A stretch of DNA of 64,000 bases, from the IMG/VR virus record IMGVR_UViG_3300042691_023183, positions 32,001 through 96,000 of that record. The stretch is one strand, 5' to 3'. This DNA comes from a virus. Under the pieces are notes generated by a model that worked only from the letters and a program-made list of their open reading frames with translations, was not told the DNA's origin and did not search any database. This document shows positions 27,754-46,485 of the stretch, one piece after another. A program made the position numbers and the translations under genes. Position 1 is the first letter of the stretch. Every line of letters begins with the position of its first letter.

Positions 27754-27755
27754 AA

Positions 27756-28964: not shown

Positions 28965-28967
28965 ATG

Positions 28968-30281: not shown

Positions 30282-30282
30282 A

Positions 30283-30972: not shown

Positions 30973-31940
30973 ACAATTTCCTTTTGAACTTTTTCAATAT
31001 CAACTTTACCGAAATCTACTCCCATACAATTATCTGGTTGTATCTGTCCAACTTGTTCTTTGGTGGTGTGCAGAGTGAACTTTTCACTTGGTGTGAAATT
31101 TGCCAACGTGTAATCCATGGCTTTGATAAACTGGTTACACATATTTACGGCGTTCAATCCACCTTCGTTTAGTGCCCATCTACGTCCTTCTTCACCACGA
31201 CGAGTACGTTCTTCGTTTGGAATTAGGTACCAATACATCATGGCTTCTGCCAAATCACGGGGGTCAACCATATCATCAAAAATGTATGGAGTTTGATTAC
31301 TACCATGCATATCGTGAACCCTTGGCCACACTGGCTTTGCCCACACACCGTGTTTCTTATACTTTCCAACGTTATTGGTTCCAAACTCTTTGGTGAATTC
31401 AACAGGGTTACCATTGTCATCCACTTGTCCAATTTGATCTTGTAGACCACCGGTAACACTCACAATAACAGGAGTACCTGACATAATGGACTCGTTGACG
31501 CTCAATCCGAATCCTTCGTTACTGGAAGCGTTAATTGTTACATCTGCCAAGTTATACATCAAGTTCATTTCTCCCGGTGTGATTTTACGTTGAGAGAAGT
31601 ATACGACATAATCACGACAAATGGCTTCCTTGACTGCGGGAAGATCAGTACCGTGACCGTTTTGACCAACGACTTCAGTATGTAGAATCAAACACACCTT
31701 CTTTGCGTCTTCTTTAGAAAGACTATCACAGAAAATTCGGTATGCGAGAATTACATTTGAAACCTGTTTACGTTTGACGTTACGACTATTGAAAAAGATT
31801 GTATAATCGTATTCGTTACCGTTAAAGAATCTCTTCTTTCCTTCAATTAGGTTTTTATCGGACGTATCTACTGGTCGAAATACCTCACTATTAATTCCGT
31901 GGGGTACATAATGTAAAAGTGTTTTTCCTTTGATTGGCAT
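30969..31940 (-). CDS. GT4 glycosyltransferase, C-terminal half
   Basis: VPHGIN, NSRNVKRK, SNEGFGLS..E, TGGLQDQ. Confidence 0.85.
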   Translation of the reverse strand: MPIKGKTLLHYVPHGINSEVFRPVDTSDKNLIEGKKRFFNGNEYDYTIFFNSRNVKRKQVSNVILAYRIFCDSLSKEDAKKVCLILHTEVVGQNGHGTDLPAVKEAICRDYVVYFSQRKITPGEMNLMYNLADVTINASSNEGFGLSVNESIMSGTPVIVSVTGGLQDQIGQVDDNGNPVEFTKEFGTNNVGKYKKHGVWAKPVWPRVHDMHGSNQTPYIFDDMVDPRDLAEAMMYWYLIPNEERTRRGEEGRRWALNEGGLNAVNMCNQFIKAMDYTLANFTPSEKFTLHTTKEQVGQIQPDNCMGVDFGKVDIEKVQKEIV

Positions 31941-31943
31941 ATA

Positions 31944-32495
31944 TTAAACGTTCTCCTTGATAATGTTACCGTCTTTGTCAAAATCACCGTCTAAAGTGGT
32001 ACAGTTTTCAGGTCCAAGTACCCACTTATTGATGTTATAAGTTTGTTTGCTGATACTAAACAACGCATCACAGCTTTCGTAGAATGGACGATTCCACATA
32101 GGATATGGTAGATCATCCCAAATATTAAGATATGTGATGGGAATCTTCTTACGAAGTTCACGTTCAATCGCGTATAACCATCCCCAATAACGAGGATCTG
32201 TAAAATGCATAATTGCGTGAGGATTTTCTCTTGCAATAACTGTATACAATATATCTTCGTTACCATATCCTGCGGTGGGATATAATGTAACATACGCATC
32301 TTGTACGTTTGTATTTTTCTTAATTTCATCACTAAGATTTATAATCTTTCCTTGATCGGGATGGTTAATCGCTCCTGCGATTTGAACCCAATCATAATGA
32401 TGAACTGTACCAATGACCAATTCACGACTCATAGTAGATACACCACTATGCATACGCAAATCATCACTCAATAAAAGAATTTTCTTTTTTGCCAT
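31944..32495 (-). CDS. GT4 glycosyltransferase, N-terminal half
   Basis: KKILLLSDDLRMHSGV, FTDPRYW, YLNIWDDLPYP, ISKQT. Confidence 0.85.
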   Translation of the reverse strand: MAKKKILLLSDDLRMHSGVSTMSRELVIGTVHHYDWVQIAGAINHPDQGKIINLSDEIKKNTNVQDAYVTLYPTAGYGNEDILYTVIARENPHAIMHFTDPRYWGWLYAIERELRKKIPITYLNIWDDLPYPMWNRPFYESCDALFSISKQTYNINKWVLGPENCTTLDGDFDKDGNIIKENV

Positions 32496-32501
32496 AACTT
32501 A

Positions 32502-32732
32502 TTATACTGTTTCTGATTGTGTTACACTTGATAGTTTTATTTTTTGACTTTCGGTTGACAATACTGGAATATGATAATTCAATACTGTGTCTCTAAAGTT
32601 TGTATCAGTTAAAAACAAATGCATAGACCTATTGACTAGATCTTGCAAATGAAACTTGATATTGGAGGTGTTTTGTTTAAATTGATCGTACACCTCCGGT
32701 TCGATCTTGACGCTGGTTAGAACTTTTGCCAT
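32502..32732 (-). CDS. Small ribbon-helix-helix-like protein
   Basis: LTSVKI beta strand followed by two helices (YDQFK; LQDLVNRSMHLF). Confidence 0.6.
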   Translation of the reverse strand: MAKVLTSVKIEPEVYDQFKQNTSNIKFHLQDLVNRSMHLFLTDTNFRDTVLNYHIPVLSTESQKIKLSSVTQSETV

Positions 32733-32775
32733 AACTTTGTATATACGTATATATACGCAATACAAATGGTTATTT

Positions 32776-33693
32776 TTAATTGTCGTCTTTATCGTCTTTG
32801 GTTTCTTTTCCGTCACAGTTTGTCTTGTAGTGTGTACAATACTTACAGTTCTTTTTAGCTTTACCCGGAACTTTTGGATAATAACCATCTTCCTTATAAG
32901 TTCCTTCCGGTGTAAAACATTCATCAATAAAGGATGTAAACGTCACCAACGACTTTGAAACATAGTTCTTAGCATTAGCCGGTTCAAAGATTTGAATTCG
33001 ATTTTGTGGAAACGCAACATTCTCATACAACTTACGCTTTAGAATAAAAAACTCGACATCAATGGAATCCAAAGGAACATTGAACTGTTTGGAGTAAAAC
33101 GCCTTGTACAACAATAACTGTGAATACTTACTTTCATCAGCAACCTGATACTTGTTCCACCCCATCGAACTTGTTTTGAAGTCCCAAATCTTGTATTTAC
33201 CAGAAGTCTTATCACGTAGAATCAAGTCAACATACGCAATAAACCGAACGTTATTCTTGATCGGTACATCCAATGGAACTTCAACTCCAATGAATTCATA
33301 CTTCCGACTCGGAAAATACTTGATACGGTTGGCGGAACTACTAAAGGTCTTTAGAATATCTTCACCATCAAACATGAATTCGGTAACGTCATCATCCGTA
33401 TATGGTTCCTTCATGTTATCTTTTTCTTCGGAAAGAATACGGGTAAATTCCTCACGGAACTTTTTAACCAAATCTATTTCGTCTGCCACTTCTGCACCAT
33501 CGGTGTACAATGACTTAATATAATCTTGAAGTGTATTATGAATAGCGGTACCAAAACAAGTGTTTAGACTCGACTCATATACACGCAAACCTTTCAAATA
33601 ATTAAGATACCAACTATGAGGACACTTGAACCATCCTGAATATTGTGAAAAGCTGACCGTCTTTTTGTTTTTTTCTTCTATAATTTCAGACAT
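32776..33693 (-). CDS. PD-(D/E)xK Cas4/RecB-like exonuclease
   Basis: SFSQ...CP, FGTAIH, E, YVDL, WDFKTS, QLLLY, C-terminal CKYC...C (Fe-S). Confidence 0.88.
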   Translation of the reverse strand: MSEIIEEKNKKTVSFSQYSGWFKCPHSWYLNYLKGLRVYESSLNTCFGTAIHNTLQDYIKSLYTDGAEVADEIDLVKKFREEFTRILSEEKDNMKEPYTDDDVTEFMFDGEDILKTFSSSANRIKYFPSRKYEFIGVEVPLDVPIKNNVRFIAYVDLILRDKTSGKYKIWDFKTSSMGWNKYQVADESKYSQLLLYKAFYSKQFNVPLDSIDVEFFILKRKLYENVAFPQNRIQIFEPANAKNYVSKSLVTFTSFIDECFTPEGTYKEDGYYPKVPGKAKKNCKYCTHYKTNCDGKETKDDKDDN

Positions 33694-33744
33694 ACTTATA
33701 TACAGTATCATGTACGAACTTGAAAGTCTACATCTTCTAATTCT

Positions 33745-34500
33745 ATGCGAAATATAATATTTACCCTACTGTTTACTTTAACCACTTACGCCAACGGTGT
33801 CTTTTATGTCCAAAAATCAAGTGGAGAAACCGTTTTGGAAAATGTGGCAAATAATGTTTTGTCCACTAATTCTCCGGTTGTGGGTCAAACATACACCGCC
33901 AACGGACAAAATTATGCTTTCAAAACTTCAACCAACTCGGAAGTAACTGTGGCATTTTCCAACGACGTGTTTGTTAAAGTCAAAGAATCGGCCCATGTAA
34001 CCCTTGATAATTTTGATCAAACCTTCATCAATATCTCTTCTCTACCAGAAAAAGCTAAGTACGAGACATACTCAAAATCGTTATCGTTAATCGAAGGTGA
34101 ACTTGATGTCTACTCAGATCAAGGTGGCAATTCCGAATCAATCTCTACCATCAACACCAAACTTGCATCGATTATACTGTCCAAGGGCAAATTCGTCGTA
34201 CAAGCCGATGATCGTACCACCGTGATTATTGTTCTTGAAGGGTCCGCTGTTATTTTGGATAATTCATCCAAGAGAAAAGAAAGCGTTAAAGCCAACCAAA
34301 CCGTGGTGATTGTACCCGCTCCAAAGTTTCAAGGACGTGGAGTGGATACCATGCGTCGTGGCAATATTTTCTCAATTAAAGAAACTGTGAATGGTGACTC
34401 TGAGTCCTATCTATTGGGAGTTAATGCCGTAGTTGAAGATTCCAAGAACGTTCGATTTTGTATAATCGACAAAAACGTTCGTGGTGTTAAAATTAATTGA
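33745..34500 (+). CDS. Secreted FecR-domain protein
   Basis: Signal peptide; KT...S...AFSN...V...A.V, L.EG.L, INT.LA, G.FVV, T.I.VLEGS pattern. Confidence 0.7.
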   Translation: MRNIIFTLLFTLTTYANGVFYVQKSSGETVLENVANNVLSTNSPVVGQTYTANGQNYAFKTSTNSEVTVAFSNDVFVKVKESAHVTLDNFDQTFINISSLPEKAKYETYSKSLSLIEGELDVYSDQGGNSESISTINTKLASIILSKGKFVVQADDRTTVIIVLEGSAVILDNSSKRKESVKANQTVVIVPAPKFQGRGVDTMRRGNIFSIKETVNGDSESYLLGVNAVVEDSKNVRFCIIDKNVRGVKIN

Positions 34501-34525
34501 CTTTTTGACCACCATAGAATAAGGT
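34497..34525 (+). promoter_or_regulatory. Sigma70-like promoter for the polymerase operon
   Basis: TTGACT-17nt-TAAGGT. Confidence 0.55.
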
Positions 34526-34531
34526 TATAAG

Positions 34532-34765
34532 ATGACATTAGAAGAATTGCAGTCCCTTAACGAGGATGAAACTGCCATGTTATGGTACATGGTAAATAAA
34601 ATTGGAAGACCTGCCATCTATGGTATAGAATTGGAACCATCAGTATTTCCATCAATTAGTCGTTTTTGGTTGGCAGAAAAGATTTTGGCATCTAAAGATT
34701 CTGTTAAACCGGAACACCTTCCTATCTATGAGAGTCTGACATCCAAGTTGGGTTATATCAAATAA
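34532..34765 (+). CDS. Hypothetical protein
   Basis: 77-aa ORF directly upstream of the polymerase. Confidence 0.65.
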   Translation: MTLEELQSLNEDETAMLWYMVNKIGRPAIYGIELEPSVFPSISRFWLAEKILASKDSVKPEHLPIYESLTSKLGYIK

Positions 34766-34768
34766 GTT

Positions 34769-37315
34769 ATGTATCAAAATATTTATATCGACAAGAAGAC
34801 TGAAACCGTACACCTTTGGGATGACCAAAAGGGATATGTTACGTTCCCGATGCCTAAGTATGCGTACCGTAAGAAGACGGGTGGACGTTATCGTTCTGTT
34901 TATGGCGACGAGCTAGAAAAGGTCACCAATTTTAATCGTAATGATCCTTCAATCTTTGAAGGTGATGTTCCTCCCGAAACACGGGTATTGATTGACGCTT
35001 ACGAAGATAGTGATGAACCTTCCAAAGGACATCGTGTGGTGTTTTTCGACATTGAGGTCAGTTCTGAAGGTGGATTTCCTGTTATTGAAGAAGGTGACAA
35101 GGAACTGACGGCTATTGCTTTGTATGACGGTGCTGCATCCAAGTATACAGCGTTCATCTTGGATAAAGATGGAAAACTTAAAGACAGTGAAACTTCCGAT
35201 ACGATTATTCAAAGTTTTGATAATGAGGAATCGTTGATCAGTCACTTTATGAATAAGTGGGAGGAAATTCAACCCACAATTATCACCGGTTGGAACATCG
35301 ACGGGTTTGACGTTCCTTATCTGTATAATCGAATCAAACGGGTGATGGGTACAAACTTCGCTAAGAGGTTGAGTCCTATCCGTGAATGTTACTACAACAA
35401 TTTCTCTAAACGAATGGTTGTTGCTGGTATTTCGTGTATGGACTATATCGAACTATACAAGAAGTTCAGTGGCAAAAACGAACCAAGTTATACACTCGGT
35501 GCGATTGGTAAGAAAGTGGTCAATATTGACAAGATCACTTATACCGGAAGTCTTAATGATTTGTACCGGGATGACATTCAAAAGTACATTGAGTACAACC
35601 TGAATGACGTTAAGATCGTGGTTGCTCTTGATAAGAAACTACAATTCATCGATCTTGCACGTCGTATTTGTCATACTGGACATGTTGGTTATGAACAGTT
35701 TGGAACTTCATCACGTTATCTTGAAGGTGCTATATTGATGTATCTACGTCGTCAAGGTCGTGTTGCTCCTAATAAACCATTGGAAGGACGTGAAGAATAT
35801 GAACAACGAATGGAAGACGGTGAAGAAGGATTTGAAGGAGCTTATGTTAAACCTCCTGTTCCGGGTCGTTATGATTGGGTGTTTGATTTGGATCTCACAT
35901 CAATGTATCCGAATATCATCATCAGTCTTAACATCAGTCCTGAGACCAAGATAGCTAAGGTCGAAAACTGGAACGCTGAAGATTTTGTTCGTGGTAAATT
36001 GACCGAGGTAATTCTCAGTGGTCAAAAGTATTCTGCTCAGGATTTCAGTGAAATGTTGATTCAGAATAACCTCAGCGTTGCTAGTAACGGAGCAGTGTAT
36101 AAACTTCCAAAGGGAGAAGGTGAAGAGGGTACTATTCCAAGTATTCTTATCAAGTGGTTCAATGAACGTAAAGAAATGCGTAAGTTGGCCAAGAAACACG
36201 CTGATGCTAAAGAATGGGAAATGTATGAGTTCTACGATCAACGTCAGAAGGTTCAAAAGATCTTGTTAAACTCCATTTATGGGTGTTTGGGTCTTCCCGT
36301 GTTTCGTTTTTATGATAAGGACAACGCTGAGGCAGTTACCTTGAGTGGTGTCAGCATCATTAAGACTGCGAATATGGCAATCAACCAGTATTACAAGAAT
36401 GTCTTGGGTGAAGAGGCTAAGGGTAACGATTATGTTATCTACGTTGATACCGATTCTTGTTTTGCCAGTGCGTTGCCTATTATCAAGAAAACGATGCCGG
36501 ATATTGATATGGAAGATGAAAAACAAATGACGGAGGCGATTCTCAAGGTAACTGGAGAAGCTCAGACTTATGTCAACAAGATGTTTGACATTATGTCACT
36601 TCGTTTGTTTAACGTGAAGAAACATAGGTTTGACGCAAAACAAGAGGTGATTGCCAAGTCATCGTTTTGGTTGGCGAAGAAACGGTATTGTCAGTTCATT
36701 ATTAACAAGGGTGGAGTTGAGTGTGACGAATTGGAAGTTAAGGGTATTGACGTTGTTAGAACGTCGTTTCCTGCCAAGTTTCGTACCTTTATGAAACAGT
36801 TCTTGATTGATCTTTTGAAGAAGGTTGATCAGGAGACCATTAACAACAACATTCTACAGTTCAAAGAGGACATGAAGGACTTTGGTGTTATTGAACTGGC
36901 GAAGAATACCAGTGTAAAGTTTAAGAGTGATGCGACAAAAAAGGTGGATTACAATCCTAAGAGTCGTCAACCTTTTCAAATCATTTCAGGTACTCCTGCT
37001 CAGGTTAAGGCAGCATTGTATTATAACGATCTATTGGCACAGTTTAATTTGACCAAGATTATTCCTCCGATATTTCATGGTCAGAAGATTAAGTGGGTAT
37101 ATCTAAAACAGAATGAGTATGGTATTGAGTGTCTTGCTATGAAGGCGGACGGTACTGATCCTCAACCGATTATGGATATTATCACAAAGTATATGGATCG
37201 TGATACCATGTATGAACAAGAGTTGAAGAGTAAACTTGTTGATTTTTACGAGGTGTTAAATTGGGAGTACCCAAATTCAAATTGGAAAGCTGCATCTGCA
37301 TTTTTTGAGTTTTGA
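34769..37315 (+). CDS. Family B DNA polymerase (T4 gp43-like)
   Basis: Exonuclease DIE, GWNIDGFD, YNLND; polymerase DLTSMYP, KILLNSIYG, YVDTDS, KKRY, KGID. Confidence 0.97.
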   Translation: MYQNIYIDKKTETVHLWDDQKGYVTFPMPKYAYRKKTGGRYRSVYGDELEKVTNFNRNDPSIFEGDVPPETRVLIDAYEDSDEPSKGHRVVFFDIEVSSEGGFPVIEEGDKELTAIALYDGAASKYTAFILDKDGKLKDSETSDTIIQSFDNEESLISHFMNKWEEIQPTIITGWNIDGFDVPYLYNRIKRVMGTNFAKRLSPIRECYYNNFSKRMVVAGISCMDYIELYKKFSGKNEPSYTLGAIGKKVVNIDKITYTGSLNDLYRDDIQKYIEYNLNDVKIVVALDKKLQFIDLARRICHTGHVGYEQFGTSSRYLEGAILMYLRRQGRVAPNKPLEGREEYEQRMEDGEEGFEGAYVKPPVPGRYDWVFDLDLTSMYPNIIISLNISPETKIAKVENWNAEDFVRGKLTEVILSGQKYSAQDFSEMLIQNNLSVASNGAVYKLPKGEGEEGTIPSILIKWFNERKEMRKLAKKHADAKEWEMYEFYDQRQKVQKILLNSIYGCLGLPVFRFYDKDNAEAVTLSGVSIIKTANMAINQYYKNVLGEEAKGNDYVIYVDTDSCFASALPIIKKTMPDIDMEDEKQMTEAILKVTGEAQTYVNKMFDIMSLRLFNVKKHRFDAKQEVIAKSSFWLAKKRYCQFIINKGGVECDELEVKGIDVVRTSFPAKFRTFMKQFLIDLLKKVDQETINNNILQFKEDMKDFGVIELAKNTSVKFKSDATKKVDYNPKSRQPFQIISGTPAQVKAALYYNDLLAQFNLTKIIPPIFHGQKIKWVYLKQNEYGIECLAMKADGTDPQPIMDIITKYMDRDTMYEQELKSKLVDFYEVLNWEYPNSNWKAASAFFEF

Positions 37316-37317
37316 TT

Positions 37318-38088
37318 ATGAATATTGCTATTTTGATGTCAGGAAGAACCGAACGGTTTAATTTTGTTTTAGATTTGAATAAAAGCAATTTGATCCAACC
37401 ACTTTTGGATTCGGGTCATAAAGTTGATATGTTTGGATCTTTCTGGGATGAACATGATACAGAATCATGTATTCACGCATTTCAACCCCATTTGAAAGTT
37501 ACTGACATTGAAACGTTTACACCTTTCACTTGTGGTATGATTAATAATTTTAACGAACATGAAGAACGTATTAAGAAGTATCAAAATGATAGTAAACTTT
37601 CAAATACATTGTATTGGCTTTATAAGTTGAATCGTTTATATAAAATTGTTAAACAGTATGAACGTATGAATAGTATAAAATATGACTATTATGTTCGTAT
37701 TCGTCCTGACGTTGGATTGAGATATCCATTTAATGTAGATGATTTAAATCACTTAACGGATGATTCTATTATTACCCACGTTGACCACGTAGTTAATTCG
37801 GGTGGTAAGATATATGGGTGTGGAGAAGGATGGATAGATGACAATTTCTGTATTGCTAAACAACATCCATTTGAGGTCTATTGTAGTGTCTACGATGATA
37901 TACTGTCACTCTGTGATATGTGTCAGAACTGTATATCTCATTTGTTGTTTAAAAAACAATTTGAATTGAAGAATATAAAAACATTGCTTCCTAATTCGCC
38001 ATTAATTATAGTTCATAAAACCCATATGGGTATACAACTGTTTACTTACTTTGAATATGTGTACCCAAATTTTGGTGTTACCCGGTAA
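37318..38088 (+). CDS. Glycan-locus hypothetical protein (GT-like)
   Basis: IAILMSG..R, KYDYYVRIRPD, DDNFCI; pattern typical of polysaccharide-locus proteins. Confidence 0.6.
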   Translation: MNIAILMSGRTERFNFVLDLNKSNLIQPLLDSGHKVDMFGSFWDEHDTESCIHAFQPHLKVTDIETFTPFTCGMINNFNEHEERIKKYQNDSKLSNTLYWLYKLNRLYKIVKQYERMNSIKYDYYVRIRPDVGLRYPFNVDDLNHLTDDSIITHVDHVVNSGGKIYGCGEGWIDDNFCIAKQHPFEVYCSVYDDILSLCDMCQNCISHLLFKKQFELKNIKTLLPNSPLIIVHKTHMGIQLFTYFEYVYPNFGVTR

Positions 38089-38090
38089 GT

Positions 38091-38195
38091 GTGATTGAGT
38101 TAATTATTTTTGATTTGGATAAAGTTTTGGTTGAAACAAATATTGAAAATATGTGGGGTGGGAAAACTAGAAGAGTAAAAAATTATATTAAGTAA
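38091..38195 (+). pseudogene. Internally deleted HAD-family phosphatase remnant (34 codons)
   Basis: GTG start; translates MIELIIFDLDKVLVETNIENMWGGKTRRVKNYIK*, with HAD motif I (IIFDLDGVLV-like) and then an early stop. Confidence 0.65.
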
Positions 38196-38226
38196 AACGA
38201 TTAAATATAAATTAGTTATAATTGTT

Positions 38227-39438
38227 ATGATAACCAAATCGATAAAAGAACTTATTTTTGTTAACCGGAACACTGTGTTTTCTGGTAACATTGTTACATA
38301 TTATATTAAATCTAAAACGGATTTATTTGATGCGGCTAAAGCTATTGCATTGGGACAAAGTGTTGGGAACCCAGAAAAAAGATCCGAATTTGAAAGCAAC
38401 GAATTGTTTGAAACATTTTGTGCCAAAGTTATTATAGACGACGTTGATTTTTCTAAAAATGAAGGATCGGTTGATATTTATTATCCAGACTCCAATTTCA
38501 ATTATCAAGAAGATGGAATAACACATTTTTTAACCACTATTATGGGTGGACAAGTTGATATTGACATCATTCAAAAATGTCGAATAACAAACATACAGTT
38601 TTCAAATAAATTCACATCCATATTTAATGGACCGAATCTTGGTTTATATGAAATGCGGCAGTTGTGTAACATCAATGATAAAACACCGTTATTTGGTGGA
38701 ATTATCAAACCGAAAATCGGACTTAATGTAAATGATTATGTAGAAGTTGTTAAAATTTATGCGGATAATGGATGTAATTTTATCAAAGAGGATGAAATTT
38801 TATCAAATCAATCGTTTTGTTCAATTGAAAAACGACTTGAAAAGATTGGTGATTATCTTAGAACCAACAACATTAAGATGGTCTATGCACCATCGATAAC
38901 GTGTGACCATTTATATTTAGAGGACCGTATACGTAAAGTCCATAATATGGGAATAAACGGTATCCACATCAATATTCATAGTGGATACGGTGCATATAAA
39001 TTGGCAAAAGATCTTAATCTATCTATGTTTTTACATTATCAGAAAAGTGGAGATAGGTTATGGACAAATCCACAACACGATTATTCTATAGATGAATCAG
39101 TTTTGTTTGAAATTGCAAGTCGATGTGGATGTTCTACACTTCATGTTGGTATGATTGGTGGATATTTAAATAGCGATTCTGATAGTTTGAAGAAAACTAT
39201 AAAGAAACTAGTTGAATTAAATTCTGTGCCAGCTTTAAGTTGTGGAATGCATCCGGGGTTAATTGAATATATTAAATCCGAACTTGGTCATCCAAACTGG
39301 ATGGCAAATGTTGGTGGATCAATTTCATCACATCCGATGGGTAGTAAAGCTGGCGTAAAAGCGATGGTCCAATCGATTCAAAAAACATACGGTGATGAAT
39401 ATTACACAGCAATTGAAACGTGGGGATTAAAGAAATGA
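38227..39438 (+). CDS. RuBisCO-like protein (form IV-like RLP)
   Basis: GGIIKPKIGL, FIKEDE (carbamate Lys/Mg site), LHVG, LSCGMHPG, VGGSISSHPMG..AG.KA. Confidence 0.92.
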   Translation: MITKSIKELIFVNRNTVFSGNIVTYYIKSKTDLFDAAKAIALGQSVGNPEKRSEFESNELFETFCAKVIIDDVDFSKNEGSVDIYYPDSNFNYQEDGITHFLTTIMGGQVDIDIIQKCRITNIQFSNKFTSIFNGPNLGLYEMRQLCNINDKTPLFGGIIKPKIGLNVNDYVEVVKIYADNGCNFIKEDEILSNQSFCSIEKRLEKIGDYLRTNNIKMVYAPSITCDHLYLEDRIRKVHNMGINGIHINIHSGYGAYKLAKDLNLSMFLHYQKSGDRLWTNPQHDYSIDESVLFEIASRCGCSTLHVGMIGGYLNSDSDSLKKTIKKLVELNSVPALSCGMHPGLIEYIKSELGHPNWMANVGGSISSHPMGSKAGVKAMVQSIQKTYGDEYYTAIETWGLKK

Positions 39439-40160
39439 CTTTAAACGTTGTTATACCAGCTGCTGGTCTTGGTACTCGATTTAATACCACAATTCCAAAA
39501 CCTTTACTGGATGTTAATGGATCTCCGATGTTAGCGAGAGTTATAAATAACTTTCATCATCGTGATGTAAAGTTTTTTGTATGCATTCTTAAAGAGCATC
39601 AACAGAAATTTAATATCATAGATAATGTAAAAACATACTGTGACACATCATCGATCAACTATGTTATCATTGATGAACTTACAGATGGACCTGCTCGAAC
39701 ATCCTATTTTGTAAAACAACATATTAATGTCGATGAACCATTGATCGTGACAAATTGTGATCAGGTTATTTTTGATTTGGATTTGGATAAACTAACGTCT
39801 TTTTCAGAAAAGAAATCAGCAGATGGAGTCGTTGGGACGTTTTATTCAAATAGTCCAAAAAATAGTTATATTAGATTAAATGATGATGGGTTAGTTACAC
39901 AAGTTAGAGAAAAAGAGGTTATTAGTAATTATGCTACAAACGGACTTCATTTTTGGTCAAAAGGATCTTATTTCTTTGAGTCATGTGACGAAATGTTTTC
40001 TCGAAATGACAGAGTAAATAATGAGTTTTATGTTGGACCAAGTTACAACTATATGATCAACAAAGGAATGAAAGTTGTTCAATATTTTTTCAATGAACAT
40101 TTTCCAATAGGAATCCCACAAGATTTAGAGTTATTTAAAAAAATAGATGAAAATATTTGA
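39435..40160 (+). CDS. Sugar-phosphate nucleotidyltransferase
   Basis: IPAAGLGTRF, PKPL, TDGPA, NCDQ, EK, NNEFYV, IGIPQD; ATGA-coupled to the RLP. Confidence 0.88.
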   Translation: MTLNVVIPAAGLGTRFNTTIPKPLLDVNGSPMLARVINNFHHRDVKFFVCILKEHQQKFNIIDNVKTYCDTSSINYVIIDELTDGPARTSYFVKQHINVDEPLIVTNCDQVIFDLDLDKLTSFSEKKSADGVVGTFYSNSPKNSYIRLNDDGLVTQVREKEVISNYATNGLHFWSKGSYFFESCDEMFSRNDRVNNEFYVGPSYNYMINKGMKVVQYFFNEHFPIGIPQDLELFKKIDENI

Positions 40161-40473
40161 TTCAAAACCGTTTATGGATAAAGGCGGTTGGTTTATTGGA
40201 GATTTCGAACCAACTGTTTTTAAAACGACTGCATTTGAGGTTTCATACAAACTCCATTATAAAGGAGAGAGTTGGCCAACTCACCACCATAAGGTAAGTG
40301 AAGAAATAAACTTTCTAATTCGTGGTAGAATGACTATTAATGATGTAGTTATTAATGTTGGAACCATATTCATCATTGATCGATATGAATCGATAAAACC
40401 AGTATTTCTGGAAGATTGTGAACTAATTGTTGTGAAAGTTCCGTCTTCGAAAAATGACAAATATGAAGATTAA
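40147..40473 (+). CDS. Cupin-like small protein
   Basis: GWFIGDFEP, H.HK..E, VVKVPS..DKY. Confidence 0.75.
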   Translation: MKIFDSKPFMDKGGWFIGDFEPTVFKTTAFEVSYKLHYKGESWPTHHHKVSEEINFLIRGRMTINDVVINVGTIFIIDRYESIKPVFLEDCELIVVKVPSSKNDKYED

Positions 40474-40475
40474 TT

Positions 40476-41108
40476 ATGAGCAATATAGATCAAAATTTAT
40501 ACGTTAAGAATACATCAAATGTTAATGGACTTTCTTATCTACCATCTTTCAAAAATGAATATGATAACGACGTTGACTGGCCCCGATGGTTTGATGTAAA
40601 AAACGGGATTCCAAATGAAATTAGTGATGCGAACAAAGAAGCATTGGATGATATTCTACGTAAGGTCAATGTAAAAAACGTCATTGAAATTGGTATTTCT
40701 CGTAATGATACAAGATCTTTTACCACACAACTACTTTACGCAAAGAAAGGAATTTATTGTGGAATTGATATTGAGGACAAAACATTTTTGAATGATCATT
40801 TAAATCGTGTATATACAATCAAAGCTAATTCACATGATCAATCAACTATACGTTCATATTTAAATACCATTGGATTGAAAAAATGTTCTGTATTATTTAT
40901 CGATGGATGGCACTCGGTTAATACTGTTATTAATGACTGGAAATATACAGATTTGCTTGATGACAATGGTGTCGTTATTTTTCATGATACTAACTATCAT
41001 CCGGGTCCAAATCTTATTATTGATGCAATTGATCGATCCATGTATAGGGTAGTAAAGTATTGTGATGGTGGTTGTGATTGGGGTATTGCAGCTGCGTATA
41101 ATTTATGA
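40476..41108 (+). CDS. Class I SAM methyltransferase (Methyltransf_24-like)
   Basis: IEIG, GID, LFIDGWHS, GVVIFHD. Confidence 0.82.
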   Translation: MSNIDQNLYVKNTSNVNGLSYLPSFKNEYDNDVDWPRWFDVKNGIPNEISDANKEALDDILRKVNVKNVIEIGISRNDTRSFTTQLLYAKKGIYCGIDIEDKTFLNDHLNRVYTIKANSHDQSTIRSYLNTIGLKKCSVLFIDGWHSVNTVINDWKYTDLLDDNGVVIFHDTNYHPGPNLIIDAIDRSMYRVVKYCDGGCDWGIAAAYNL

Positions 41109-41941
41109 TACACGTATATATTCTAACATATAATAATAACCAAATCTTAAACGGATGGGCATTAAAATCATTACACGAATCAGAGTATGACCGTGATAAA
41201 GTCAAGGTTTTTGTAATAAACAATCACAGCAATATTGTTATTGAGGAACAATATAAACAAACTGTTACTGTATTAAACAATGTATTACGTCCAGATTTTT
41301 CAACTGGACATTTGGCCAGAAATTGGAATCAGGCAATAATGAGAGGATTTGTTAATTTGAATAATCCTCAATGTGAATATGTTATCACATGTCATAACGA
41401 TACCGTCTTCAAAAAAGACTGGTATAATAAATTAATGAAACATGCACGTATATACAACTATATTCAGTTAGGTGCTGGCGATCAATTTCAAATGTTTAGC
41501 CCAATTGCTGTAAAATATATTGGCATGAACGATGAACGATTTTGTGGAAACGGTGTACAAGAAGCAGATTATTTGTTACGTGCCAGATTATATTTTGGAC
41601 AACATTCGACTATTAATGACTATAGTCATGATCGAATTCATAATCCAATTGAAGAAAATGACGTGATCGAAACGACACCCCTTGGATGGCAACATTCAAA
41701 AGACATCCACGCATTGTATGTACGATTTCATCCGATTTGTTATACTATTTTTAAGAAAAAGTGGGGAATATCTCCTATCGAATGGAGTCGTTATGATGTT
41801 CCATTTGACAGTCTTGAACCACTAATTGATAACTATATTTTATACCCATATTTTGAACGGGATATCATTACATTAAAACAACAAAAATACGTTTGTGAAG
41901 ATACTTCGCTTGATGAAATTTGTAAACTAAGAACCAGATGA
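41105..41941 (+). CDS. GT-A fold glycosyltransferase
   Basis: ILTYN, INNH, LARNWN, HND, IGMNDERF..EAD. Confidence 0.7.
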   Translation: MIHVYILTYNNNQILNGWALKSLHESEYDRDKVKVFVINNHSNIVIEEQYKQTVTVLNNVLRPDFSTGHLARNWNQAIMRGFVNLNNPQCEYVITCHNDTVFKKDWYNKLMKHARIYNYIQLGAGDQFQMFSPIAVKYIGMNDERFCGNGVQEADYLLRARLYFGQHSTINDYSHDRIHNPIEENDVIETTPLGWQHSKDIHALYVRFHPICYTIFKKKWGISPIEWSRYDVPFDSLEPLIDNYILYPYFERDIITLKQQKYVCEDTSLDEICKLRTR

Positions 41942-42399
41942 AACTCATATCACACAGAGGCAACTTACATGGACCAAATCCGGATAAAGAAAACCATCCA
42001 GATTACATTACCTCTGCATTAAAAGCTGGACATGATGTTGAAGTTGATGTATGGTATCAGAATAACAAGTGGTATTTGGGACATGATAACCCTGAATATC
42101 AGGTTAAGTATGATTTTCTAGCAGAACGTAAGTTTTGGCTACATGCCAAGAATGGAGATGCGTTTCACCTATTGTTACAAGATTTTACGTTGAATGTATT
42201 TTGGCACACCGATGAAGATTGGGTATTGACAAGTAAACGATATATTTGGACTTATCCTACCAAACAATTATATCCTGAAAGCATCTGTGTAATGCCAGAA
42301 CGGGGTTGGATGGGTGATCTTACAAAATGCTATGCAGTATGTACTGACTTCGTAAAAGAATTTCCAGAACAGTTTGAACAAGAATATTGGCTAAATTAG
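41938..42399 (+). CDS. GDPD/PI-PLC-like phosphodiesterase
   Basis: ISHRGN, EN, DVEVDVW, LGHD, WLHAKN, FWH, VCTD. Confidence 0.8.
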   Translation: MKLISHRGNLHGPNPDKENHPDYITSALKAGHDVEVDVWYQNNKWYLGHDNPEYQVKYDFLAERKFWLHAKNGDAFHLLLQDFTLNVFWHTDEDWVLTSKRYIWTYPTKQLYPESICVMPERGWMGDLTKCYAVCTDFVKEFPEQFEQEYWLN

Positions 42400-42401
42400 T
42401 T

Positions 42402-43241
42402 ATGATTAACGTAAGTTTATATGATGGATCATTTGCACATGCATATTCGTGTTCAAATGGAGATTTGAATATTTTATCAAAACATGTACATTTTGATAGA
42501 GAAAATATACATGACATTGCGTTTTTTACGGATGGGTATGTTACGTGTGATAGTATAGATAACCATAACCACAAACGAAAAATTGCGTGGTTATTGGAAC
42601 CAAGATCTATTTTACCTGATTTGTATAGTTTTGATATAGACTGGAGTAAATTTGATTTTATTTTAACTCACGATAAACAGTTCATTAAAGACGTTCAATC
42701 GCATACAAATGCCAATGTGTATTGGTATCCTGTAGGAGGAACTTGGCTATATGAAAGTGATTGGGTCATATATCCAAAGACTAAAAACTTATCTATCATT
42801 GCGTCTGGAAAACGGGAAACTGTTGGTCACAAAATGAGACACGATATTATTGATCGTTTTCGTAGTCATTTTGATGCAATACACGGACGTGGTTATCAAT
42901 GTGTCGAATATAAATTTGAATCGTTGGCACCATATAGGTTTTCAACTATTATTGAAAACGCTCGTATAGATGACTATTTTAGTGAGAAACTTATTGATTG
43001 TCTACTGACGGGTACCATACCAATTTATTATGGAACCAACAACATAGGAAATTATTTTGACACGAACGGTATGTTGTTGATCGATAACGTTGATTCGTTT
43101 AGTAATATAATTCCGATGTTAAACGAAGAGTATTATGAATCCAAAATGGACATAATTCTTGAAAACTACAATCGTGCCAAAGAATACGTCAATACCGAAG
43201 ACTGGATTTATAACAAGTATAAAGATATACTGTTTGTATGA
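42402..43241 (+). CDS. GT10 alpha-1,3-fucosyltransferase-like
   Basis: LLEP, YRFSTIIEN, DYFSEKLIDC...GTIPIYYG. Confidence 0.85.
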   Translation: MINVSLYDGSFAHAYSCSNGDLNILSKHVHFDRENIHDIAFFTDGYVTCDSIDNHNHKRKIAWLLEPRSILPDLYSFDIDWSKFDFILTHDKQFIKDVQSHTNANVYWYPVGGTWLYESDWVIYPKTKNLSIIASGKRETVGHKMRHDIIDRFRSHFDAIHGRGYQCVEYKFESLAPYRFSTIIENARIDDYFSEKLIDCLLTGTIPIYYGTNNIGNYFDTNGMLLIDNVDSFSNIIPMLNEEYYESKMDIILENYNRAKEYVNTEDWIYNKYKDILFV

Positions 43242-43936
43242 TTACAGATTTGTTTAACATACTGGATTCTGTTGAGATAATCAACCTTGATGAAAGAACT
43301 GATAGGTTTGATAGAATATCAACACATCTAAATAAAATCGGATTTAACGGACGTTTTAATAGGTTTTCAGCTATAAAACGTGAACATACAGAACTTACAC
43401 GTTCTGAGAATGCAAGACTTGGGTGTTTTTTAAGTCATTGTAACGTGATTGAAAACGCTTATAATAAAAAACAAAAATATGTACTTGTTCTTGAAGATGA
43501 CTGTGAATTTATAGAAAATAACATCAGATACTTCAATTTTCAGAGTCTATGTGAAACCATTCAAAATATTCAGTTTGATATGGTATATCTAGGAGCAACG
43601 TACTATCATTTAGAATCAACATCATTTTCACAGTTGGATAAAGTTAAACCATATGGGTGTAATGCCGCGTTTTGCGTAATTATTAATATTCAGTCAATGT
43701 TTGAGAAAATAATTAATGAATACGTGGATGAAGATCATATTACAAATTTGGCAAAAAACAACCGTACAGATTATTCTAAAACCACGATTGATGGAGCATA
43801 TAATTTTTTGAATCCGGTACGATATGCCACGGATCCAATTCTAGCGACTCAATTTTCATCATTCAGTGATATAGAACAGGTTGACGTGTCGTATCCACTG
43901 GTAACCATGTGGAAAGATGCAAAATCGAAGATATAA
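43238..43936 (+). CDS. GT25-like glycosyltransferase
   Basis: INLDERTDR, RFSAI, GCFLSH, VLEDD, YLG. Confidence 0.85.
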   Translation: MITDLFNILDSVEIINLDERTDRFDRISTHLNKIGFNGRFNRFSAIKREHTELTRSENARLGCFLSHCNVIENAYNKKQKYVLVLEDDCEFIENNIRYFNFQSLCETIQNIQFDMVYLGATYYHLESTSFSQLDKVKPYGCNAAFCVIINIQSMFEKIINEYVDEDHITNLAKNNRTDYSKTTIDGAYNFLNPVRYATDPILATQFSSFSDIEQVDVSYPLVTMWKDAKSKI

Positions 43937-43993
43937 AAACTGGACATTTCAGGAAATCATAGTAAAGTATAGGAACAATAAACGAAAAAAGTT

Positions 43994-44737
43994 ATGACAA
44001 AGACAAATCTACAAAAATTCATTAGCAAGTATTCTCTTAACGGAGAAGTAACCGCAGTTAAGTGGAATCTTTCCACCAAGGACAATCAGATCAGTCTGAG
44101 TGCCATCACAAACGACAAGAGTTTGGTTTATGATGTGAACTGGAAGAATGTCGAAGGACTTTCTGCTGATTATGAGATTGGTGTGTATGATACCGATAAG
44201 TTGCAGAAGATGTTGAAGGCTCTTGGTGAGGATATTACCATGACAGTTAATCAGAATGAGGGACGTGTGACTTCATTGTCATTTTCTGATGGTACTTCGG
44301 AAATTCAGTTTATGACCGCTGAGTTGACTGTGATTCCCAAGTCTTCACGATTGAAGGGTCAACCCGCGTACAACTTTGAAATCGATCTCACTAAGGATTT
44401 CATTGCCAAGTACCGTAGTGCCAAGGATGCGTTGTCTGACGAATCCAAGTTCACCCTTCTCATGAACAAGAAGAGTAAGAAGGTTCAGTTGGTTATCGGA
44501 TACGCTTCAATCAACAGCAATCGTGTGACTTTGGATGTTCCTATTAAGAGTGGAACTGCGAAGCTCGAGAAGTCGTTGAACTTCAACGCTGACTTCCTCA
44601 AGAGTGTGTTGGATGCTAACAACGAGTGTGAAAATGCGGTGTTGAAGGTTTCCGAGTCAGGATTGGCAACTGTTCAGTTCAGTACTGATGCCTTTGAAGC
44701 TGTTTATCATTTCGGTCCAGTTCAAGCTAACGACTAA
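43994..44737 (+). CDS. DNA sliding clamp (gp45-like)
   Basis: Size and IGVYD..KL pattern; immediately upstream of the clamp loader. Confidence 0.75.
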   Translation: MTKTNLQKFISKYSLNGEVTAVKWNLSTKDNQISLSAITNDKSLVYDVNWKNVEGLSADYEIGVYDTDKLQKMLKALGEDITMTVNQNEGRVTSLSFSDGTSEIQFMTAELTVIPKSSRLKGQPAYNFEIDLTKDFIAKYRSAKDALSDESKFTLLMNKKSKKVQLVIGYASINSNRVTLDVPIKSGTAKLEKSLNFNADFLKSVLDANNECENAVLKVSESGLATVQFSTDAFEAVYHFGPVQAND

Positions 44738-44742
44738 GTATT

Positions 44743-45711
44743 ATGGATGCCTTTTTTGAAGAGGTTAGTCACACCAACGATGAAAAGGTTCATAGTTTGT
44801 GGGTCGAGAAGTATCGACCCACAACCCTTGAAAACTATATCGGTAATGAGAACATTATCACGACTATCAAGTCGTATATTGATCAACAGAACATTCCTCA
44901 TTTGATGTTGTATGGTGGTGCGGGTACTGGCAAGACTACTCTTGCTAAACTTCTTACCAAACAAATCAATTGTGATGTTTTGTATATCAATGCGTCTGAT
45001 GAAAACAAGGTTGATAACGTTCGAACCAAGATCAAGACTTTTGCGTCTTGTGTGGGTATCAAACCGTTGAAGGTTATCATTCTTGACGAGTGTGATTATA
45101 TGTCACCTGAGGCACAAGCGGCTCTTCGTAACCTGATGGAGACGTTTAGTATGTCTACAAGGTTCATTCTTACGTGTAACTATCATGAGAAGATGATTCT
45201 TCCGATTGTGTCACGTTGTATGACTTTTGAGATTGCTCCGATGACTAAGGTTTCGGTGGCAGTTCATATGACCAAGATTCTTAAGACTGAGAATGTTGAG
45301 TATCAGAATGATGACTTGGCTTATATTGTTAACACGTACTATCCTGATATTCGTAAGATTATCAATGTGACACAACAGTCTACCTTTGAAGGTAAGTTGA
45401 AAATCAATAAGGAGTCATCCTTAAAGACTGATACTCACCAAAAGTTGATTGACATGATCAAGAGTGGTATTGGTAAGCCTACTGCGTTCAATGAGATCCG
45501 ACAGTTTCTTGCGGATCAACGTATTAAGGTGTACGATGATTACTTTGCGGTTCTATACCAGAAGGTAGATGAATACGCTAACGGTAAACAAGCGATTGCT
45601 ACAATCATCATTTCGGAATATATGTATCAGTGTAGTTTGTTGATTCCTCCTTTGAAGGAGATTGCGTTGATGGCGTGTATCAGCAAACTTCTGAACGATT
45701 TACGAAAATGA
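44743..45711 (+). CDS. Clamp loader ATPase subunit (gp44/RFC small)
   Basis: WVEKYRP, GAGTGKTT, NASDE, ILDECD, SRC, PDIRK. Confidence 0.95.
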   Translation: MDAFFEEVSHTNDEKVHSLWVEKYRPTTLENYIGNENIITTIKSYIDQQNIPHLMLYGGAGTGKTTLAKLLTKQINCDVLYINASDENKVDNVRTKIKTFASCVGIKPLKVIILDECDYMSPEAQAALRNLMETFSMSTRFILTCNYHEKMILPIVSRCMTFEIAPMTKVSVAVHMTKILKTENVEYQNDDLAYIVNTYYPDIRKIINVTQQSTFEGKLKINKESSLKTDTHQKLIDMIKSGIGKPTAFNEIRQFLADQRIKVYDDYFAVLYQKVDEYANGKQAIATIIISEYMYQCSLLIPPLKEIALMACISKLLNDLRK

Positions 45712-45896
45712 AACCGATTGAGTTAATTACAAAAACGTTTGGCAAACGTCCTTGGTATAATAGGTTGGAAAATGGGTTAAATAAACGTGAGTTTATTATA
45801 TATGCTAATTACTATCCATATACTGAGGACGGCAAAGTGTATGACTTTGCCAAATCAAATAAAATTAAAATAAGTATACGACCATTGGGTGGTTAA
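45708..45896 (+). CDS. Small hypothetical protein (ANYYP family)
   Basis: ATGA-coupled; IYANYYP shared with 46279..46482. Confidence 0.6.
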   Translation: MKPIELITKTFGKRPWYNRLENGLNKREFIIYANYYPYTEDGKVYDFAKSNKIKISIRPLGG

Positions 45897-45914
45897 TATA
45901 TATAACCACAAAAT

Positions 45915-46286: not shown

Positions 46287-46482
46287 ACGTCAAATTCTTA
46301 AAGAGGTGTGGGATAATTGGGCCGGTAAAGAGTGGTTCAAGTATGCTAATTATGAAAATGAACAATCAAACAAGATTGTGATTCAAGCAAACTATTATCC
46401 TACGTTAGAAATGCCACAGTTTAGAATCTTTATGGGTAAATATCCTGAGATTCAATATGAGGTAACATATCCAAGAGGTTAA
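46279..46482 (+). CDS. Small hypothetical protein (ANYYP family)
   Basis: IQANYYP; paralog of 45708..45896. Confidence 0.6.
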   Translation: MNKRQILKEVWDNWAGKEWFKYANYENEQSNKIVIQANYYPTLEMPQFRIFMGKYPEIQYEVTYPRG

Positions 46483-46485
46483 TTT

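Follow-up and report, generated by a model that had tools for sequence, protein, structure and literature searches.

A RuBisCO-like protein clade linked to a nucleotide-activation cassette in the glycan islands of aquatic phages

RuBisCO-like proteins (RLPs) are a textbook example of how one active site can gain new chemistry. Known RLP functions are few, comprising methionine salvage, the methylthioadenosine (MTA)-isoprenoid shunt, and the catabolism of apiose and acid sugars. A gene encoding such a protein of 403 amino acids (aa) lies among glycan genes in a 64,000-nucleotide stretch of viral DNA (hereafter the window), which corresponds to bases 32001-96000 of the 126,838-base IMG/VR virus record IMGVR_UViG_3300042691_023183. 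What does a protein with the RuBisCO fold do in the glycan island of a phage? An initial annotation, made from the sequence alone, had described it as a non-carboxylating RLP that may make an unusual monosaccharide for a phage glycan, and this glycan-related interpretation is partly supported by the analysis reported here. The substantive addition of this work is that the RLP clade is linked, across viruses, bacteria and archaea, to a nucleotide-activation cassette. The RLP is probably an active non-carboxylating enzyme that stands first in a sugar-activation cassette, followed by a sugar-phosphate nucleotidyltransferase (NTPt), a small cupin and a miniature GDPD-like phosphodiesterase (mini-GDPD). 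Since a gene for a sugar-activating enzyme almost always lies next to that of the RLP, and the two are sometimes fused, the RLP probably supplies an unusual sugar phosphate to the synthesis of surface glycans.

The product of the gene is a full-length homologue of the RuBisCO large subunit, and the hallmarks reported in the initial annotation are borne out by profile, sequence and structure comparisons. Residues 153-386 match Pfam family PF00016 (RuBisCO_large) with 93.7 bits against a cut-off of 30.1, and the score for PF02788 (RuBisCO_large_N) is 20.5 bits against a cut-off of 20.7. A phmmer search of the PDB matched 99 chains, the best of which are form III and form II/III RuBisCOs (8dht, E = 4.2e-27; 9dyp, 1.1e-26; 3a13, 4.2e-25). 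Structure prediction, which had been proposed as a check, gave a confident two-domain RuBisCO fold: the AlphaFold2 (AF2) model, with 32 clade members as input, has a mean pLDDT of 94.8 and superposes from end to end on form III chains (424-468 alignment columns, TM-score 0.85-0.88, 20-23% identity), and to the Chlorobium RLP with a TM-score of 0.81-0.83. Among the NCBIfam models, the top-scoring one is that of form III RuBisCO (TIGR03326), yet its 137.1 bits stay well below the cut-off of 497.45 for a bona fide RuBisCO, as do the scores for NF003252 (135.2 against 438) and for the form II model NF010002 (95.7 against 489). The models of characterised RLPs are likewise not reached, including the MtnW models NF007095 (126.2 against 409) and TIGR03332 (88.3 against 513.6) and the OiaX model NF042437 (87.4 against 700).

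Which parts of the RuBisCO active site have been kept? The residues of the RLP were mapped by HMMER alignments to 8dht and 3a13 together with a 131-row MAFFT alignment of the family, with spinach RbcL numbering and residue roles that we take to be the accepted ones. Conserved are K175 and K177 (K161 and K163 of the RLP, in the motif IIKPKIG), K201, D203 and E204 (K187, D189 and E190, in FIKEDE), and H327, S379, G381, G403 and G404 (H306, S338, G340, G363 and G364), the same set that had been listed by eye in the initial annotation. Substituted are H294 by Q272, R295 by K273 and H298 by D276 (LHYQKSGD), K334 of loop 6 by Y313, G380 by C339, and T65/W66 by N48/P49. The changes of H294, R295 and K334 had been read correctly, but those of E60 and N123 to glutamine had been read correctly only in part: the Glu and the Asn are indeed gone, but G43 and G108 align at these sites and the glutamines follow one residue later (Q44 and Q109), with a one-residue shift of the alignment possible. 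In addition, gaps in the 3a13 alignment show that the RLP lacks about 20 of the residues that follow loop 6 in the RuBisCO of T. kodakarensis. The RuBisCO catalytic set is incomplete, with E60, N123, H294 and K334 replaced, and also R295 and H298. Judged from these residues, the machinery for proton abstraction and Mg2+ binding and the cradle for the P1 phosphate are intact, and all residues that serve CO2 addition, hydration or C-C bond cleavage are gone. Because E60, N123, H294, R295, H298 and the loop-6 lysine are lost, the RLP is predicted not to be a carboxylase, and the earlier proposal of a non-carboxylating protein gains support both from these replacements and from the NCBIfam scores.

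This residue pattern is a property of a whole clade. In 32 members with 27-81% identity, G43, Q44, S45, K161, P162, K163, K187, D189 and E190 are invariant, as are Q272, Y313, S338, G340 and G363, and N48, G108, H306, C339 and G364 are conserved in at least 90%. That the signature stays invariant or nearly so at such divergence speaks for a functional enzyme whose active site is new and fixed. A quick LG+G4 tree of 127 rows, labelled by residue signature only and built without labelled reference forms, places the 44 rows that carry the G60/Q294/Y334 signature on one side of a single branch with SH-aLRT support of 100. The rows of this tree were drawn from 107 of 150 representatives (340-520 aa), 12 viral loci, 11 close homologues and the window; the 43 representatives outside this length range and the partial rows P0167, P0170, P0225 and P0260 were dropped.

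The clade is large and widely distributed. A word-indexed search returned 1890 relatives at E <= 1e-3, some of them outside the clade, with a close group at 70-93% identity and a broad group at 44-54%, and an exhaustive search of representatives gave 40 clusters at E <= 1e-30. A profile scan found relatives in at least 282 viral stretches of IMG/VR, and the same profile found 50 cellular loci in species-representative genomes. Among the 80 viral loci retained for the survey described below, three carry the GVMAG label of giant-virus bins. Among the cellular carriers are many single-amplified genomes of SAR11 besides a complete Pelagibacter chromosome, one Tatlockia and three species of Legionella, Azospirillum oleiclasticum, Nonomuraea rosea, Verrucomicrobia and Turneriella, as well as bacteria of the candidate phyla radiation (CPR; including a metagenome-assembled genome of Beckwithbacteria, L028) and DPANN archaea. 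The RLP was found in none of 50,697 deposited phage records.

The gene neighbourhoods of these homologues carry the main finding. The survey comprised 130 homologue loci, 80 viral (kept from at least 282) and 50 cellular, and a partner gene was counted if a hidden Markov model (HMM) built on the first viral loci matched it with at least 60 bits no more than 3 kb from the RLP. Each of those first 15 viral loci, taken from a single-sequence scan of IMG/VR, contains the NTPt, while 14 contain the cupin and 13 the mini-GDPD. Over the whole survey, the NTPt accompanies the RLP in 78 of the 80 viral and 45 of the 50 cellular loci, the cupin in 64 and 16, and the mini-GDPD in 65 and 22, respectively. 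Four of the five cellular loci that have no NTPt lie on contigs of 4.1 kb or less, and the fifth (L030) has full flanks. Blind clustering of all neighbours within 5 kb, at the 103 loci left after collapsing RLPs at 90% identity, placed the NTPt (98/103) and the mini-GDPD (69/103) at the top, followed by epimerases/dehydratases of the short-chain dehydrogenase/reductase (SDR) type (32/103), methyltransferases, and DegT aminotransferases (10/103); methyltransferase families homologous to the product of 40476..41108 in the window recur around the RLP loci. Almost half of the open reading frames (ORFs) of the NTPt family (94/191) lie immediately next to the RLP in the same orientation. The counts for the cupin rest on the HMM search, because blind clustering did not recover it as a family, and an ORF of 90-130 aa is found within 400 bp of the RLP in 50 of the 103 loci. 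A Pfam scan of one representative each of ten neighbour families (ranks 3 to 12) yielded SDRs, methyltransferases and DegT, three families having no Pfam match, and no mtn or other salvage enzyme was among the ten. Among the annotated families, the surroundings of the RLP consist of glycan genes, with nothing that indicates methionine salvage or sugar catabolism. Such a survey had been proposed in the initial annotation, with salvage or catabolic operons as the outcome that would speak against it, and what it returned is pairing with the NTPt as the rule, in glycan surroundings.

Gene fusions tie the partners together more closely. In one 667-aa protein (P0125), the RLP (residues 12-419) is fused to the NTPt (429-658, E = 1.6e-74), and in five viral contigs (L122, L132, L140, L142 and L144), three of them with the GVMAG label, the cupin and the NTPt form one ORF of 351-882 aa. 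The cellular contexts are those of surface-glycan loci. The Pelagibacter chromosome has the order GT9 glycosyltransferase, NTPt, RLP, CTP_transf_3, HAD (a fragment) and mini-GDPD, with a 2-hydroxyacid dehydrogenase also near, and minimal loci in Legionellaceae contain the RLP and the NTPt only. In Legionella maceachernii, a LicD gene (6.3e-44) divergently adjoins the RLP and NTPt pair with an ABC-2 exporter near; among the 130 loci and the window, LicD neighbours occur only in four Legionellaceae loci. In one viral locus (L005), a gene of the GDP-mannose 4,6-dehydratase family (PF16363, 4.2e-98) directly follows the module. A different fusion was seen in three further islands, where an N-terminal HAD_2 domain (3.5e-28) is joined to a second, paralogous NTP_transferase domain in proteins of 450-470 aa (L002, 8562-9971, 469 aa; L003, 14299-15693; L011, 7880-9238); this gene is absent from the window.

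In the window itself, the cassette belongs to a run of genes from a family B DNA polymerase (PolB) to a clamp loader, all on the plus strand with abutting or overlapping ends, and the starts and stops of the cassette genes continue to abut or overlap as far as the GT25 glycosyltransferase (Table 1). The stop codon TGA of the RLP (39436-39438) overlaps the in-frame ATG of the NTPt at 39435 as ATGA, an overlap that the initial annotation had noted; the NTPt frame is open from a GTG at 39420, and the ATG is the probable start. The N-terminal nucleotide loop G-x-G-T-R is present in the NTPt as AAGLGTRF, aligned to 4evw, the nearest solved chain (E = 6.5e-8), and every NCBIfam equivalog model stays far below its cut-off for this protein (best 45.7 against 400). 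The cupin contains the metal motif HxH...E...G with conserved H37, H46, H48, E53 and G60; its family profile matches only solved generic cupins in the PDB (E = 3.5e-4 to 3e-3), and its neighbours in the Atlas are cupins, some of them in clusters where 33% of members carry MannoseP_isomer. The mini-GDPD has no Pfam match, and its 1072 relatives are all annotated as hypothetical. Its invariant residues in 30 sequences (H6, R7, G8, N9, E18, N19, E35, D37 and H49) belong to the pattern H-R-G-N...E-N...E-x-D...G-H-D, in agreement with the GDPD catalytic motif, and its profile matches the GDPD 7e0v (E = 0.0037) over the motif region. The AF2 model (pLDDT 93.3) has GDPD chains as its top six Foldseek matches, which are weak (E = 3e-3, TM-score 0.38), and the protein has only about 60% of the length of a GDPD barrel. 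It is best described as a putative miniature GDPD/PLC-like phosphodiesterase, with membership in that family unproven.

Table 1. Genes of the RLP cassette and its flanks in the window (position 1 is the first base of the window)
Feature	Coordinates	Strand	Basis and remarks
Family B DNA polymerase (T4-type PolB)	34769..37315	+	Pfam DNA_pol_B 4.2e-36; phrog_262 3e-169; heads the same-strand gene run
258-aa protein, possibly glycosyltransferase-like	37312..38088	+	phrog_13607 (no assigned function) 8.7e-11; Glyco_transf_15 0.0036, below cut-off
RLP, RuBisCO-like protein, 403 aa	38227..39438	+	ATG start; matched by description to the phage-type 'form IV-like' clade
NTPt, sugar-phosphate nucleotidyltransferase	39435..40160	+	PF00483 NTP_transferase 36.7 bits vs 21.2
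Small single-domain cupin, 108 aa	40147..40473	+	Cupin_7 0.0045, Cupin_2 0.04, both below cut-off
Probable methyltransferase (Methyltransf_24/TylF-like)	40476..41108	+	2.4e-5, 25.6 bits vs 26.3, just below cut-off
Putative family 2 glycosyltransferase	41105..41941	+	Glycos_transf_2 4.4e-4, 20.7 bits vs 23.3, below cut-off
Mini-GDPD, putative GDPD/PLC-like phosphodiesterase, 153 aa	41938..42399	+	motif, profile, fold
GT10 glycosyltransferase, fucosyltransferase-like	42387..43241	+	Glyco_transf_10 4.6e-6, 26.9 bits vs 23.9
GT25 glycosyltransferase	43238..43936	+	Glyco_transf_25 2.9e-8, 34.2 bits vs 24

The flanks of glycosyltransferases and methyltransferases that had been claimed for the RLP thus hold for the GT10 and GT25 genes, and for genes farther from the cassette that score over their cut-offs (GT1, Fringe-like, a marginal MGAT2, and FkbM-type and C-methyltransferases), but the family 2 glycosyltransferase and the Methyltransf_24 gene within the cassette remain below theirs. 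A homologue of the 258-aa protein upstream of the RLP is found in the same island of contig L003. A promoter scan of 33500-46500 gave 72 sites against 60.9 +/- 7.7 in shuffled sequences and was uninformative. The sole strong terminator-like hairpin of the region, at 46210-46242 (+), has a 15-bp stem followed by a T run and falls inside the end of a 123-aa ORF (45915-46286).

How could these proteins work together? In the reading that we favour, the RLP would act by enolisation as an isomerase or epimerase and yield a rare sugar phosphate, which would then be activated to a nucleoside diphosphate (NDP)-linked form, and the catalysis, substrate class, step order and glycan target that we infer for the cassette would be as follows. 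A carbamylated Lys187-Mg2+ centre (with D189 and E190) together with K161 would abstract a proton beside the carbonyl of a phosphorylated keto-sugar, whose phosphate would be held at the P1 site by S338, G340, G363 and G364. With K334, H294, N123 and E60 replaced by an invariant set of Tyr, Gln and Gly-Gln, the enediolate would simply be reprotonated, possibly with Y313 or K161 as the acid, and the outcome would be an isomerisation, epimerisation or tautomerisation. RuBisCO itself has a side reaction of this kind, the xylulose-bisphosphate "misfire" caused by misprotonation, and this misfire and the 1,3-proton shift of the R. rubrum RLP would be precedents for such a reprotonation. Cupins of the phosphomannose isomerase (PMI) type interconvert aldose and ketose, and the cupin of the cassette may perform an aldose-ketose step before nucleotidyl transfer. 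A phosphoester step may be provided by the mini-GDPD or by a HAD enzyme such as that in the 469-aa HAD-NTPt fusion of L002. The translationally coupled NTPt would then turn the rare sugar phosphate into an NDP-linked donor, to be used by the neighbouring glycosyltransferases or, in Legionellaceae, by the LicD-type phosphotransferase. Taken further, and here our proposal is rather less likely than not to hold, the RuBisCO fold would have been recruited as a keto-sugar-(bis)phosphate epimerase/isomerase in which misprotonation is now the main reaction, opening an undescribed nucleotide-sugar (or NDP-phospho-sugar) pathway that places a rare monosaccharide onto virion or cell-surface glycans and that hundreds of aquatic phages and some giant-virus bins would have in common with SAR11, Legionellaceae and cells of CPR and DPANN.

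Several points weigh against the sugar-activation reading and have to be set beside the evidence for it. The NTPt resembles enzymes that act on sugar 1-phosphates (4evw, HddC, AglF and the N-domain of GlmU), all of them below cut-off, and the RuBisCO-family substrates known to us carry non-anomeric phosphates, so that an extra mutase or kinase/phosphatase step would be needed, while neither a mutase nor a kinase is universally conserved in the RLP neighbourhoods. The P2 site of the RLP is altered (R295 to K, H298 to D), and therefore both a monophosphate and a bisphosphate are possible substrates. The cupin is missing from 34 and the mini-GDPD from 28 of the 50 cellular loci, so neither can be obligatory. 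An RLP and a cupin also occur together in the R. rubrum shunt, and therefore this pairing alone is no argument for glycans. The deep fork that places the clade among the RuBisCO forms is not resolved in the 127-row tree, so ancestry gives no functional hint. Profile searches of the contig for LicD and TagF-type (Glyphos_transf) transferases found neither. Finally, passages of Jaffe et al. 2019 (PMC6389311) call the function of the IV-like RLPs "unclear".

What else could the RLP be doing? It might act after the NTPt rather than before it, for example as a keto-isomerase or epimerase of an NDP-4-keto-6-deoxyhexose through the same enolisation chemistry. SDR epimerase/4,6-dehydratase genes within 5 kb in about a third of the clustered loci, together with the PF16363 gene that follows the module in L005, speak for this order, the RLP-NTPt fusion is compatible with either one, and the shorter stretch after loop 6 could open the site to a larger substrate. 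Yet two thirds of the loci have no dehydratase, the minimal Legionellaceae loci consist of the RLP and the NTPt only, and the P1 cradle (G340, G363 and G364, with S338) is conserved as in binders of simple phosphate esters. We also know of no RuBisCO-family member that binds a nucleotide, and on balance we consider action on an NDP-sugar unlikely. Less probable still is that the RLP, as an auxiliary metabolic gene, supports the host in salvaging sulfur, methionine or nucleosides, in the manner of MtnW or of the RLP and cupin of R. rubrum, and has come to lie in a glycan island by chance. The cupin is adjacent in the window and within 3 kb in 64 of the 80 viral loci, the MtnW model is among the top NCBIfam matches at 126 bits, and characterised RLPs do act in methionine salvage and in the MTA-isoprenoid shunt, in the latter with a cupin next to them, according to passages of PMC6302742. 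Against salvage, both MtnW scores are far below cut-off, H294, which is retained in many RLP rows, is Gln in this clade, none of the ten scanned neighbour families (three of them without a Pfam family) is a salvage enzyme, and the partner that 98 of 103 loci have in common is a nucleotidyltransferase, in some cases as part of a fusion with the RLP.

A bona fide form III-like carboxylase that fixes CO2 on ribulose 1,5-bisphosphate (RuBP) during infection is scarcely credible. Its appeal lies in the closest solved sequences and folds, which are of form III, and in the form III model being the top NCBIfam match, but the 137 bits obtained are a fraction of what that model demands, the six residues E60, N123, H294, R295, H298 and K334 are replaced clade-wide, and neither phosphoribulokinase nor an enzyme of the AMP pathway is found in the ten scanned neighbour families, three of which have no Pfam family. 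That the gene is a decayed, non-catalytic remnant, or host DNA mis-joined to phage DNA, is likewise highly improbable. The record is only a fragment (CheckV completeness 36%) and the terminase families searched for are absent from it, which would suit such an origin; the blanks for capsid and portal proteins carry no information. An open frame, a confident model and a catalytic core that is invariant at 27-81% identity speak against decay, and the tail sheath and the T4-type PolB on the contig, the synteny with contigs L003 and L004, and independent assemblies of the same junctions, detailed below, speak against a mis-join.

The preferred reading, sugar activation starting from the RLP, can be placed among known systems. 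According to passages of Jaffe et al. 2019 (PMC6389311), contigs of putative phages from IMG/VR and groundwater, in part of Myoviridae, encode about 80 non-redundant "IV-like" RLPs, which group with two Beckwithbacteria sequences and have several catalytic residues missing. The clade described here shares these traits, namely IMG/VR phages, a tail sheath on the contig studied here, a Beckwithbacteria homologue and partial conservation of catalytic residues, and we infer that it is the same "form IV-like" clade, a match made by description rather than by direct sequence comparison. It reaches beyond that set into SAR11, Legionellaceae, Verrucomicrobia, Actinomycetota and DPANN archaea, and the passages cited above do not mention a cassette of nucleotidyltransferase, cupin or GDPD. 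Parts of the Global Ocean Sampling (GOS) paper report that new RuBisCO branches had already been seen in ocean data. A literature search, with subscription journals and supplements outside its coverage, found no paper that connects RLPs with a nucleotidyltransferase or with glycan synthesis, and none that assigns a function to the clade. The initial annotation had stressed a biosynthetic rather than catabolic use of the RuBisCO fold, in a virus, which overstates the case: the phage RLPs of Jaffe et al. preceded this one, and a biosynthetic use of the fold is anticipated by R. rubrum, as set out next.

The clade also differs from each characterised relative in a specific way. Form III RuBisCOs (3a13/1geh and 8dht) are the closest solved sequences and folds, with the carbamate Lys, the Asp, the Glu and the KPK lysines aligned, but the RLP lacks E60, N123, H294, R295, H298 and K334 and has a shorter segment after loop 6. 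MtnW/YkrW has the RuBisCO fold, keeps K175, K201, D203 and E204, and only enolises its substrate, yet the MtnW models stay sub-cut-off and the gene context differs. OiaX (3-oxo-isoapionate-4-phosphate decarboxylase) is an RLP that performs enolate chemistry on a sugar-acid phosphate, but its context is catabolic with kinases, whereas the context of the RLP here is biosynthetic. In R. rubrum, the RLP is a 5-methylthioribulose 1-phosphate (MTRu-1-P) 1,3-isomerase, with MtnP and MtnA upstream of it, and the cupin a methylthioxylulose 5-phosphate (MTXu-5-P) methylsulfurylase. That system comes close in having a non-carboxylating RLP that reprotonates a ketose-phosphate enolate, a cupin next to it, and an anabolic product route, but among the recurrent neighbours here there are no genes of the mtn or 1-deoxy-D-xylulose 5-phosphate (DXP) routes, the partner is a nucleotidyltransferase, and the signature is Q294 and Y334. 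According to passages of PMC6302742, the R. rubrum RLP serves an anabolic/salvage route to DXP, the MTA-isoprenoid shunt, in which the cupin acts after the RLP.

For the other half of the cassette, the nearest parallels come from sugar activation. ManC/AlgA-type enzymes (type II phosphomannose isomerase/GDP-mannose pyrophosphorylase) join an NTP_transferase domain to a small cupin isomerase, and the same two folds are adjacent here and fused in five loci; unlike in ManC/AlgA, both the NTPt and the cupin score below all equivalog cut-offs, and an RLP and a mini-GDPD are added. Deposited phage genomes offer a second parallel. The NTPt has homologues in 22 deposited phage records (26-38% identity) and the mini-GDPD in 17 (35-47%), next to glycosyltransferases and HAD hydrolases, and Synechococcus myophages account for 19 of the 22 and for all 17, respectively. 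The glycan islands of cyanophages (S-CAM9, S-SM2, S-SKS1, Bellamy and B3/B23) have the NTPt and the mini-GDPD in common with the window but no RLP, and these islands hold phosphoheptose isomerase, class II aldolase, transketolase and a "cysteine dioxygenase" cupin. This fits a constant activation module that is served by interchangeable enzymes making sugar phosphates, the RLP among them. In S-SKS1 (L019, NC_020851.1, 38066-39493), the NTPt match falls within a gene of 475 aa that bears the name 3,4-dihydroxy-2-butanone 4-phosphate (DHBP) synthase, which suggests, by annotation, a fusion of a ribulose-5-phosphate-rearranging enzyme with a nucleotidyltransferase.

Is the locus an intact part of a phage genome? 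The carrier of the cassette is a large freshwater tailed phage, in agreement with the viral origin assumed in the initial annotation. Upstream of the RLP, the T4-type PolB has its best phage match in Mel-JY01, a Microcystis phage (44.8% identity along the entire query), and the window also encodes ribonucleotide reductase subunits, UvdE, a clamp-loader-like AAA+ protein, a helicase and an HNH endonuclease. Outside the window, the same contig encodes a tail sheath (PF04984, 52.4 bits against 31.4). Profile searches of the contig with working controls found no match to Terminase_6C or Terminase_6N, and searches with Gp23 and Portal_T4 were uninformative, as their controls matched in no genome. 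Contigs L003 and L004 are syntenic with the window all the way from the upstream block, past PolB and the RLP, to the clamp loader. The 5.1-kb cassette is found near-identical in 20 runs of 13 studies, eight of these runs not being flagged as possible sources, and in one of these eight a contig of 3992 nt covers 36892-40883, from the end of PolB through the RLP, NTPt and cupin to the methyltransferase, with 0 differences. Given this bridging contig, the multiple runs, the syntenic relatives and the phage genes, a chimeric host fragment, of which the initial annotation had warned, is very unlikely. Among the 24 runs listed for the stretch, no RNA run contains it. In one run (X13), a contig of depth ~8 connects 36762 with 40644 through 40 different letters, skipping 3881 bases with the RLP, NTPt and cupin. 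It may represent a related phage without the cassette or, as its shorter side comprises only 21 letters, may stem from another organism.

The clade is large, occurs in ecologically dominant hosts and viruses such as SAR11 and freshwater myophages, and has a signature that is locked to a nucleotidyltransferase. The cassette itself is small and soluble. If the proposed function is true, the RuBisCO superfamily gains a biosynthetic, glycan-directed function, a new activated sugar is defined, and a handle is provided on the products of the large glycan islands in aquatic phages.

Glycan genes make up about half of the window, and a second, larger glycan region lies upstream of the cassette, at 12590-16528 (+) and 16824-33711 (-). 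The plus-strand part encodes an RmlA-like NTP transferase (1.9e-61), an RmlD-like protein, a Methyltransf_14 sugar C-methyltransferase (1.2e-42) and an SDR of the 4,6-dehydratase family, and the minus-strand part a UDP-galactopyranose mutase (1.3e-78), an FkbM methyltransferase, HtrL/YibB and a GT4. For several glycan genes on the plus strand, the best Pfam families are typically eukaryotic, namely MGAT2-like at 50182-50907 (2.1e-6), Fringe-like at 51544-52254 (4.4e-16) and the GT10 gene of the cassette. CbbQ-type ATPases are known to activate RuBisCO, and a MoxR-type AAA+ ATPase is encoded at 3838-4788 (+), 33 kb from the RLP (AAA_5 9.8e-20; CbbQ_C 1.2e-4). A link to the RLP as a CbbQ-type activase was considered and rejected, since PDB comparisons place the ATPase closer to midasin, NorQ and CobS than to CbbQ. 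The 672-aa protein that follows it (4836-6854, +) has no match in Pfam, PHROG or the PDB. Finally, the product of 7623-8813 (+) matches the Druantia defence protein DruA (PF14236, 4.9e-21, 75.6 bits against 27), and 52961-54856 (+, 631 aa) carries an ArdC N-terminal anti-restriction domain (5.7e-6), with PHROG matches to an anti-restriction protein and a metallo-protease.

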